Positions 31,060-31,479 of a stretch of DNA of 57,326 bases are shown here, one piece after another. The DNA is taken from the IMG/VR virus record IMGVR_UViG_3300045146_000200, positions 1 to 57,326 of that record; one strand, 5' to 3'. The stretch is from a virus. Its lineage: Duplodnaviria; Caudoviricetes. Under the pieces are notes generated by a model. It searched no databases. It worked only from the letters and a program-made list of their open reading frames with translations, and was not told where the DNA came from. The position numbers and the translations under genes are program-made. The first letter of the stretch is position 1. Every line of letters begins with the position of its first letter.

Positions 31060-31479
31060 ATGCGCGAAAAATATCACTGTTTCATCGGCCGGTGGAGTCC
31101 TCCACACCTCGGGCATGCGTACCTGTGGAAGACAGCGCACGAGGAAGATGGCCTTCCAATCCTCGTGCTCGTGCGAGACTCGGAAGACCTGTGGCCACCA
31201 TTAGTAAGGCGCGACATGGTCGAGGCTACCCTGGATGATCTAGGTATCCCTGGATATGCCGAGGTCATCCCGGACATTGAGTCTGTGGACTACGGCAGAG
31301 ACGTGGGGTATCGCGTGCGGCAGCTTGCCCCGGACGGATGCCCTCAAATCTCGGGCACGGCAATCCGAGCGGCCATCTGCAATGGCGATGAAGCTGGGTG
31401 GATCTCTGTTGTTACGCATACAGTCGCACAGATCATCAAAAGGGGGCGGAATGATCCGAAGTATCCTCTTTTGGCTTGA
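31060..31479 (+). CDS. Small HIGH-motif nucleotidyltransferase (cytidylyltransferase-like; candidate ATP sulfurylase)
   Basis: FIGRWSPPHLGH, VRD, YGRDVGY, ISGTAIR. Confidence 0.8.
   Translation: MREKYHCFIGRWSPPHLGHAYLWKTAHEEDGLPILVLVRDSEDLWPPLVRRDMVEATLDDLGIPGYAEVIPDIESVDYGRDVGYRVRQLAPDGCPQISGTAIRAAICNGDEAGWISVVTHTVAQIIKRGRNDPKYPLLA

Follow-up and report, generated by a model that had tools for sequence, protein, structure and literature searches.

The IMG/VR virus record IMGVR_UViG_3300045146_000200 is a linear contig with a CheckV completeness estimate of ∼75%, and the whole of the stretch analysed here, 57,326 nucleotides, is referred to as the window. An open reading frame (ORF) at 31060–31479 encodes a 139-residue HIGH-type nucleotidyltransferase (NT), the window NT, which is predicted to be a new, minimal analogue of ATP sulfurylase; we put the probability of this reading at roughly 0.6. 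ATP sulfurylase is the entry point for all sulfate assimilation and sulfation, and to our knowledge only two types, Sat and CysDN, are recognised. The window NT and its relatives (the mini-NT family) form a large, uncharacterised family, a candidate new variant, at family level, of an enzyme function already known. The sequences are read most economically if the family provides APS kinase with its substrate, adenosine 5'-phosphosulfate (APS). The odds lean narrowly towards the wider proposal of a third, unrecognised ATP sulfurylase class, ∼120 residues long and derived from nicotinamide mononucleotide (NMN) adenylyltransferases (NMNATs), that would give phages, the candidate phyla radiation (CPR), DPANN, Omnitrophota and most SAR11 a self-contained route from sulfate to APS to 3'-phosphoadenosine 5'-phosphosulfate (PAPS) that needs neither Sat nor CysDN. 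A first-pass annotation, made from the window sequence, had taken the ORF for a stripped-down catalytic core of Sat; genomic context supports the APS-making function that it proposed, but not the Sat-derived structure.

Exhaustive searching of 1.84 billion representatives with phmmer gave at least 270 homologues of the window NT at E ≤ 1e-3, 54 of these at E ≤ 1e-10. Among 68 fused homologues of 200–500 residues, 57 contain a PF01583 APS-kinase domain (best E 9.5e-69), and NT–APS kinase fusions occur in both domain orders. The kinase domains of two fusions, P0006 and P0018, pass the TIGR00455 equivalog cut-off for adenylyl-sulfate kinase (188.3 and 170.3 bits; cut-off 138.7). Loci were also selected solely on the NT motif RW[QS]PFHxGH, with at least 584 confirmed matches in species-representative genomes, including those of CPR, DPANN, Omnitrophota, Planctomycetota, Pelagibacteraceae, Rhodospirillales and Inquilinus limosus, and 244 in viral contigs. 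The best 80 loci of each kind were analysed, and the position of APS kinase was scored with purpose-built hidden Markov models (HMMs). In the genome loci the kinase is fused to the NT in 42, within 300 bp in 24, within 5 kb in 9 and not found in 5; the corresponding numbers for the viral loci are 5, 61, 12 and 2. In total, APS kinase is fused or within 5 kb in 153 of 160 loci (47 fused, 85 within 300 bp and 21 within 5 kb), and in six of the seven kinase-less loci the gene lies within ∼410 nt of a contig end. Whether homologues adjoin or are fused to cysC had been named at first pass as a check on the sulfurylase idea, and the outcome is strongly positive.

The partner kinases differ in length. 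The separate kinases beside the NT, as found in SAR11 and most viral loci, are short (120–159 residues in 100 of 108, and 120–139 residues in 84 of 108) and extend over roughly the first 100 positions of the APS-kinase profile and no further, most of them over about positions 4–97 (e.g. L039:9574–9993). The NT–kinase fusions of CPR, at ∼255–268 residues, are also short, and their kinase halves again cover only the first ∼100 profile positions. A full-length kinase is present in the fusions of ∼290–330 residues and in the CysC encoded in the window. The short kinases are without the C-terminal lid half of canonical APS kinase and make up a distinct 'mini APS-kinase-like' class. The window NT belongs to the full-length-kinase subgroup. 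Nineteen of the 40 NT domains nearest to it are fused to a full-length APS kinase, 20 are without known context and in the remaining one the fused kinase is truncated at a contig end, whilst the 105 short-kinase neighbours contribute none. A FastTree phylogeny of 289 domains places the window NT in a seven-member clade with support 0.94, five members of which are fused to full-length APS kinase.

The canonical sulfurylases are mostly missing from the genomes that carry the NT. Sat was found in none of five carriers, namely a single-contig ∼1.2-Mb Saccharibacteria genome (G001) and genomes of SAR11, Omnitrophota, Planctomycetota and a DPANN-type archaeon, and no CysD above cut-off was found in either of two five-genome searches (0/5 and 0/5). 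Sulfotransfer_3 is present in all five carriers and lies 0.6–7 kb from the NT in three. Sat was not found in the phage record either. Among 146 genomes of the class to which G001 belongs, two have the NT, four have APS kinase and two have Sat; both Sat genomes have Sat–APS kinase fusions, the remaining two have no Sat and their APS kinases are joined to the NT or lie next to it, and CysD is absent from all four. The NT occurs in three of 151 sampled Omnitrophota genomes, each time as an NT–APS kinase fusion, and two of the three have no Sat. Among 121 Pelagibacteraceae genomes that are at least 80% complete, 71 carry the NT, and 67 of these 71 have neither a Sat nor a CysD match; CysD was seen above cut-off in six and as a partial match in one more, and the NT is in none of these seven. 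Complementarity of the NT with the canonical sulfurylases is thus strong but not absolute. A strict alternation of NT and Sat was considered and rejected, given that the Omnitrophota genome G221 has both (an NT–APS kinase fusion plus a separate pair of Sat and APS kinase genes, C8:21212–22030 and C16:1437–4167) and that four of the five Sat-positive Pelagibacteraceae genomes carry the NT.

Sulfotransferases recur beside the family. Sulfotransfer_3 was found in six and Sulfotransfer_1 in four of the 109 genes around 18 genome loci, and each in ten of the 125 genes around 22 viral loci. A sulfotransferase profile seeded from a verified neighbour gave matches in 80 of the 160 loci, 58 of them among the 80 viral loci. 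Genes for 2-oxoglutarate–Fe(II) oxygenases also recur in the viral flanks (PF13759 in 10/125 and PF13640 in 5/125), and genes for GDP-mannose dehydratase and epimerase occur near the viral module of NT, kinase and sulfotransferase.

The same neighbourhoods bear on a rather unlikely alternative, that the enzyme activates some other small acceptor (a phosphoramidate-, phosphonate- or selenate-type anion, possibly with CTP) and that the APS-kinase-like kinase 3'-phosphorylates the resulting NDP-X to a PAPS analogue for a different group transfer. Many partner kinases are truncated, covering about positions 4–98 of PF01583. The commonest neighbour family at genome loci is Methyltransf_11 (7/109 flanking genes), and methyltransferases also stand beside the window NT and in a SAR11 locus. 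In a Saccharibacteria metagenome-assembled genome (MAG), a 489-residue phosphoenolpyruvate (PEP)-utilizers mobile-domain protein (L006:6114–7580, + strand) is encoded three genes upstream of an NT–short-kinase fusion; we take it to resemble the glutamine kinase of the Campylobacter jejuni O-methyl-phosphoramidate pathway. However, PEP-utilizers is not among the 25 neighbour families listed for the genome loci. The window NT groups with fusions to full-length kinases of the kind that pass the adenylyl-sulfate kinase equivalog cut-off, and sulfotransferases, as users of PAPS, are recurrent and specific neighbours even in the short-kinase viral loci. Alternation of Sat and NT is moreover seen in the short-kinase carriers G001 and G037.

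The ORF and the three motifs on which the first-pass annotation was built are real, and the motifs are more than a chance resemblance. In an 81-sequence alignment headed by the window NT, the residues G10, R11, H16, G18, H19, R39, P71, G79, R80, V82, G83, Y84, S98, T100 and R103 are at least 90% conserved, and the same 15 are 93–100% conserved in 289 unique domains of the family. In these domains the values for G10, R11, H16 and H19 of the HIGH-type motif are 98–99%, and for R39 97%. Within the signature YGRDVGY they are 99% (G79), 99% (R80), 97% (V82), 100% (G83) and 93% (Y84), and within ISGTAIR they are 98% (S98), 95% (T100) and 97% (R103). The window NT keeps every family-invariant residue (G10, R11, H16, H19, R39, G79, R80, V82, G83, Y84, S98, T100 and R103). 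Amongst the best 150 matches, the regular expressions G[RK]..P.H.GH, xG[RK]x[VILA]G[YFW] and [IVL]S[AGS]T..R match 120, 138 and 128 sequences, respectively.

The public gene call on this contig is an 87-residue product starting at the internal M53 (31216–31479), which drops the HIGH motif. The 139-residue form is the right one, since homologue alignments begin at residues 2–7; an AGAGGA sequence lies 8 nt 5' of its ATG. With the 87-residue call, automated annotation would overlook the enzyme class. The family has no model in Pfam (2025) or NCBIfam (June 2026), and its members bear public names such as 'adenylyl-sulfate kinase', 'cytidyltransferase' and, from IMG, 'phosphopantetheine adenylyltransferase'. 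One SAR11 cluster at 90% identity has 9,291 members. A literature search found neither a NadM-like sulfurylase nor an NT partner of phage cysC, but it left subscription journals mostly outside its reach, so that absence from print is not established.

By homology the nearest relatives are NMNATs of the NadM type. A profile of 81 standalone family members was compared with the Protein Data Bank (PDB), and in the best 60 of 80 matches at E ≤ 1 NadM NMNATs came first (1f9a, E 2.9e-18; 1ej2 and 4yp7, ∼6e-15), followed by phosphopantetheine adenylyltransferases (PPATs, ∼E 2e-5). An AlphaFold2 model from the single sequence was unusable (predicted local distance difference test score, pLDDT, 38), and an alignment-based model was used instead (pLDDT 93.1, predicted TM-score 0.87). 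Foldseek placed NMNATs at the top for this model (query TM-score, TMq, 0.73–0.75), and VIA-align superposed it on 1f9a with Z 14.4 and a root-mean-square deviation of 2.5 over 128 residues at 29% identity. The Z values for NadD and PPAT were ∼12 (PPAT 12.4), and for TmcAL 10.3. In the profile alignment GRWSPPHLGH pairs with GRFQPFHKGH of 1f9a and ISGTAIR with YSGTEIR, whilst R39 lies opposite a Gly in the IGIGSAQ segment of NadM. The stretch of the profile from position 78 to 87 spans residues 76 to 110 in 1f9a, which leaves ∼25 residues absent: between DIE and GYEV, where 1f9a has residues 77–109 (∼33 residues), the family has eight (xVxYGRxV). In NadM this segment is the presumed site of the nicotinamide-contacting residues.

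One reading of this kinship is that the protein is a genuine, unusually small NMN (or nicotinic acid mononucleotide) adenylyltransferase that helps the phage to rebuild NAD+. NadM enzymes are the closest in both sequence and fold, GRWxPxHxGH differs little from the NadM motif, NadM-type enzymes are known from phages, and there is a weak match to a phiRSL1 protein annotated as an NMN adenylyltransferase. We nevertheless regard it as very improbable. Curated NMNAT models in NCBIfam are missed widely by the window NT (NF002243, 30 bits against a cut-off of 127; TIGR01527, 20.1 against 181.2), its relatives scoring 22.6–68.5 bits on such models, and the DIE–GYEV segment has been cut from ∼33 residues to eight. 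The near-obligate partner is APS kinase, not NAD genes, and NUDIX was found in only three of the 109 genome-locus neighbours.

The gene content of the phage itself is summarised in the table. The first-pass annotation had proposed a full phage route in which APS passes to CysC and its product to a sulfotransferase. A CysC, the presumed next enzyme, is indeed encoded, albeit 25 kb from the NT, whilst the sulfotransferase is a tentative assignment: the ORF at 34463–35377 has an Atlas feature score of 0.95–0.96 to clusters in which 10–39% of members carry PF00685 or PF13469. The window CysC scores 121.4 bits on TIGR00455, under the 138.7 cut-off, and its actual start codon may be further downstream in the reading frame. 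A predicted complex of CysC and NT scored 0.10 against a mark of 0.32, which is evidence neither way. The PAPS_reduct-family gene falls below all NCBIfam cut-offs (PRK13795-type 96 bits, CysH NF002537 67 and TIGR00434 62.6) and could be either a PAPS consumer or a DNA-modification-type enzyme. A megablast search of the 28–38 kb region against phage records gave no match, so no deposited genome is close to that of this phage.

Table. Features of the window around the candidate sulfurylase gene and motifs within its product
Feature	Position	Strand	Details
TylF-like methyltransferase	4117–4710	+	
GmhA-like SIS protein	4710–5303	+	TIGR00441 99.6 bits, below cut-off
CysC (APS kinase)	5210–5824	+	PF01583 E 1.5e-36, 126 bits, profile 3–147 of 152
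HldE-domain-I-like heptose-7-phosphate kinase	10494–11513	+	TIGR02198 265.8 bits, below 345 cut-off
RusA	30189–30611	+	
Window NT, mini HIGH-type nucleotidyltransferase	31060–31479	+	ATG ORF, 139 aa; candidate APS-forming sulfate adenylyltransferase
GRWSPPHLGH, HIGH-type (HxGH) ATP-binding motif	31087–31116	+	aa 10–19
R39–D40 (VRD)	31174–31179	+	R39, family-specific invariant Arg at end of strand 2
YGRDVGY, family signature	31291–31311	+	aa 78–84 (YGRDVG, aa 78–83, nt 31291–31308)
ISGTAIR, superfamily-wide ISxTxxR motif	31348–31368	+	aa 97–103
Methyltransf_11 methyltransferase	31749–32615	+	Immediately downstream of window NT; PF08241 E 1.9e-5
GT9-like (heptosyltransferase-like) glycosyltransferase	33076–33984	+	PF01075 E 2.8e-4, 20.7 bits, cut-off 22
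Sulfotransferase-like ORF	34463–35377	+	Presumed PAPS user, tentative
PAPS_reduct-family gene	36346–37143	−	PF01507, 103 bits

Several of these genes recall ADP-heptose synthesis, and the first-pass annotation had offered as its alternative that the NT is the missing heptose-1-phosphate nucleotidyltransferase, the counterpart of HldE domain II; as such an HldC it would complete a phage route to ADP-heptose. In its favour the phage encodes a GmhA-like SIS protein and an HldE-domain-I-like kinase, both with scores below cut-off, without a domain II, and GT9-like genes; the NT, which shares a block with a GT9-like gene, is the only HIGH-type nucleotidyltransferase in the record. GmhB was not found in the phage. 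An antisense ORF of 343 residues (10476–11507, − strand) without a Pfam match overlaps the HldE-domain-I-like gene. The idea nonetheless earns very little credence from us. The window NT gives no match at E ≤ 1 to rfaE_dom_II (TIGR02199) in NCBIfam, nor did a six-frame search of the record at the same threshold, and superposition on HldC 5x9q is weak and partial (Z 7.1 over only 91 residues, model residues 1–96). Its motifs are of the NadM type rather than the glycerol-3-phosphate cytidylyltransferase/HldC type. The partner found across the family is APS kinase, with no heptose genes (SIS, PfkB or GT9) among the 25 listed neighbour families of either the genome or the viral tally. Furthermore, the record is only ∼75% complete, and the host may supply HldC.

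Some quite different role is likewise doubtful, whether a PPAT-like activity, a reverse or salvage reaction on APS or PAPS (for instance APS + pyrophosphate (PPi) → ATP, following APS reductase) or a part as a non-catalytic partner of APS kinase. PPATs are the second-best family by profile and superpose with Z 12.4, IMG gives the PPAT name to some members, and the SAR11 context is one of general one-carbon (C1) and sulfur-compound metabolism. On the other hand, NCBIfam CoaD models gave no match to the window NT at E ≤ 1, and the 25 neighbour families listed in the genome tally, like those in the viral tally, include no coenzyme A (CoA)-pathway genes, although the SAR11 locus L039 does encode a CoA-binding protein two genes away from its NT. 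The HxGH and ISxTxxR motifs are invariant, arguing against a non-catalytic role, and a reverse reaction would be the same chemistry as that of the proposed sulfurylase.

A number of observations weigh against an ATP-sulfurylase function or against a Sat-derived structure, beginning with homology: the family is nearest to NMNATs rather than to Sat, and no ATP sulfurylase is among the best 60 of the 80 PDB profile matches at E ≤ 1. When the family was compared by hhalign with 16 canonical Sat domains taken from genomes in this analysis, only 34 C-terminal columns around ISGTxxR aligned (probability 50.5%, E 1.6e-4), and the Sat motifs RNPxHxxH and GRD(H)AG had no alignment to the family motifs, YGRxVG included. 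The parallel drawn at first pass between three motifs here and three in Sat therefore survives only for ISGTxxR, which appears homologous; YGRDVG and GRDxAG do not align. No Pfam threshold is reached by the window NT (Citrate_ly_lig E 0.082, CTP_transf_like 0.14 and ATP-sulfurylase, PF01747, 0.24 with 11.2 bits against a cut-off of 24.3), and PF01747 is matched at E ≤ 1e-3 by five of the 68 fused relatives (best 7.4e-6). An HMM of the 16 verified Sat domains, for which there was no independent positive control, matched no ORF of the loci and no ORF of the window. The Sat-type PUA-like N-terminal domain is absent, the HIGH motif beginning at residue 10 of 139. Superposition on Sat and on HldC had been suggested at first pass as a means of choosing between them, and both fit less well than NMNAT, with Z 8.9 for Sat 1v47 (8.9–6.2 over the Sat structures). 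The window NT is thus not a trimmed Sat, because only the 34 C-terminal columns align and both fold and profile favour NMNAT, and the claim that it is a stripped-down Sat core falls.

The remaining points against a sulfurylase function concern mostly context. The window NT lies 25 kb from cysC, the only APS kinase in the window, unlike the arrangement in 153 of 160 loci, and the sulfotransferase-like ORF of the phage matches no Pfam, NCBIfam or neighbour-derived sulfotransferase profile. The substrate of the short partner kinases is less certain, and APS-kinase homologues can act on other nucleotides, C. jejuni Cj1415 phosphorylating CDP-phosphoramidate. In the Pelagibacteraceae locus L039:6687–17161 a methyltransferase gene lies directly upstream of the mini-kinase gene and forms a triad with it and the NT gene, flanked by GCV_T/MTHFR-like genes and by ECH, CoA-binding, MsrA, flavodoxin-like and DAO+GCV_T genes. 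This SAR11 locus is a set of C1/methyl and sulfur-compound genes and no sulfation island, so the short-kinase subgroup is the less certain part of the family. To these may be added the genomes noted above in which NT and Sat coexist, a sub-threshold CysD-like gene of 192 bits in genome G003, and the fact that many of the genomes searched are incomplete MAGs or single-amplified genomes.

Should the protein be a sulfurylase, its origin and mechanism can be sketched from the alignments. The mini-NT family would be descended from, or sister to, NadM-type NMN adenylyltransferases, having lost the NMN-binding (mononucleotide) segment and gained the invariant arginines R39 and R80. The reaction would be ATP + sulfate → APS + PPi. 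As in other HIGH enzymes, H16 and H19 of HxGH together with R11 and with R103 of ISxTxxR would hold ATP and PPi, whilst R39 and R80 may line a pocket fit for a small oxyanion and not for a mononucleotide. The APS would pass to an APS kinase, CysC in the phage and the fused or adjacent kinase in most relatives, and the kinase would drive the unfavourable sulfurylase reaction onward, giving PAPS for a sulfotransferase. In the phage this last step would presumably be carried out by the ORF at 34463–35377, which stands in a block with a methyltransferase and the GT9-like transferase. The family would then be a functional analogue of Sat and CysDN by non-orthologous displacement. Substrate, direction of reaction and residue roles are all inferred at this stage.

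If the sulfurylase reading is right, the widely reported phage 'cysC' auxiliary genes would be parts of sulfation modules (NT, kinase and sulfotransferase) and not of assimilatory sulfate reduction. Passages of the COBRA paper (PMC10914622) place phage cysC in assimilatory sulfate reduction and name no sulfurylase. Genome-based surveys of the sulfur cycle would at present under-call sulfate activation, and the presence of APS kinase and sulfotransferase genes without a known source of APS, as in G001 and in 67 of the 71 SAR11 carriers, would be explained. The names of thousands of proteins would need correcting, and the small enzyme, or a fusion of 260–330 residues, could serve as a compact tool for PAPS regeneration. 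Members occur in cultured phages (Salvo, Sano, DLP_6 and others) and in Inquilinus limosus, which opens the idea to direct testing.

Amongst known systems the NadM NMNATs (Methanocaldococcus jannaschii MJ0541, 1f9a; Methanothermobacter thermautotrophicus, 1ej2 and 1hyb; NadM–Nudix, 2qjo and 2qjt) are the nearest relatives. They share with the mini-NT family GR(F/W)xPxHxGH, (I/Y)SxTxIR and the C-terminal helices. The family is shorter, at 110–140 residues compared with ∼168–181, has R39 in place of a Gly of IGIGSAQ, has gained the invariant YGRxVGY and has APS kinase, not NAD genes, as its genomic partner. Sat (PF01747; Thermus thermophilus 1v47, yeast 1j70, the Aquifex Sat–APS kinase 2gks and human PAPSS 1x6v) has the HIGH fold and the ISGTxxR helix in common with the family. 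The two also behave alike in genomes: the NT is joined to APS kinase or stands next to it, in either order, and in one class the partner of APS kinase is sometimes Sat and sometimes the NT. The catalytic domain of Sat has ∼210 residues and is accompanied by a PUA-like N-terminal domain, whereas the mini-NT has ∼130 residues and no such domain. CysD/CysN makes APS, the product proposed for the mini-NT, and in the Pelagibacteraceae sample it and the NT are mutually exclusive (0/7 vs 71/121). CysD is a PP-loop enzyme of the PAPS_reduct family driven by the CysN GTPase; its fold is unrelated to that of the mini-NT, for which no GTPase partner is evident.

The C. jejuni pair Cj1416/Cj1415 of O-methyl-phosphoramidate synthesis offers a parallel in logic, in that an NDP-linked small anion is made and then 3'-phosphorylated by an APS-kinase homologue. 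Cj1416 is not known to be of the HIGH type, and in mini-NT loci neighbours of the glutamine-kinase type are rare and sulfotransferases usual. Cultured phages encode the phrog_10255 'kinase' proteins, in which the C-terminal half is a mini-NT member and the N-terminal half an APS-kinase-like P-loop domain. They are carried by the Xylella phages Salvo (gp32) and Sano, the Stenotrophomonas phages DLP_6, Suzuki and Bhz60, Xanthomonas phages and Clavibacter phage 33, and the fusions of Salvo gp32 (L001:3584–4330) and DLP_6 (L002:2584–3315) are annotated only as 'kinase' or 'hypothetical protein'. These proteins differ from the window NT in being fused rather than separate, are ∼30–33% identical to it, and have a kinase half, that of Salvo included, that spans only positions 4–91 of the 152 in PF01583.

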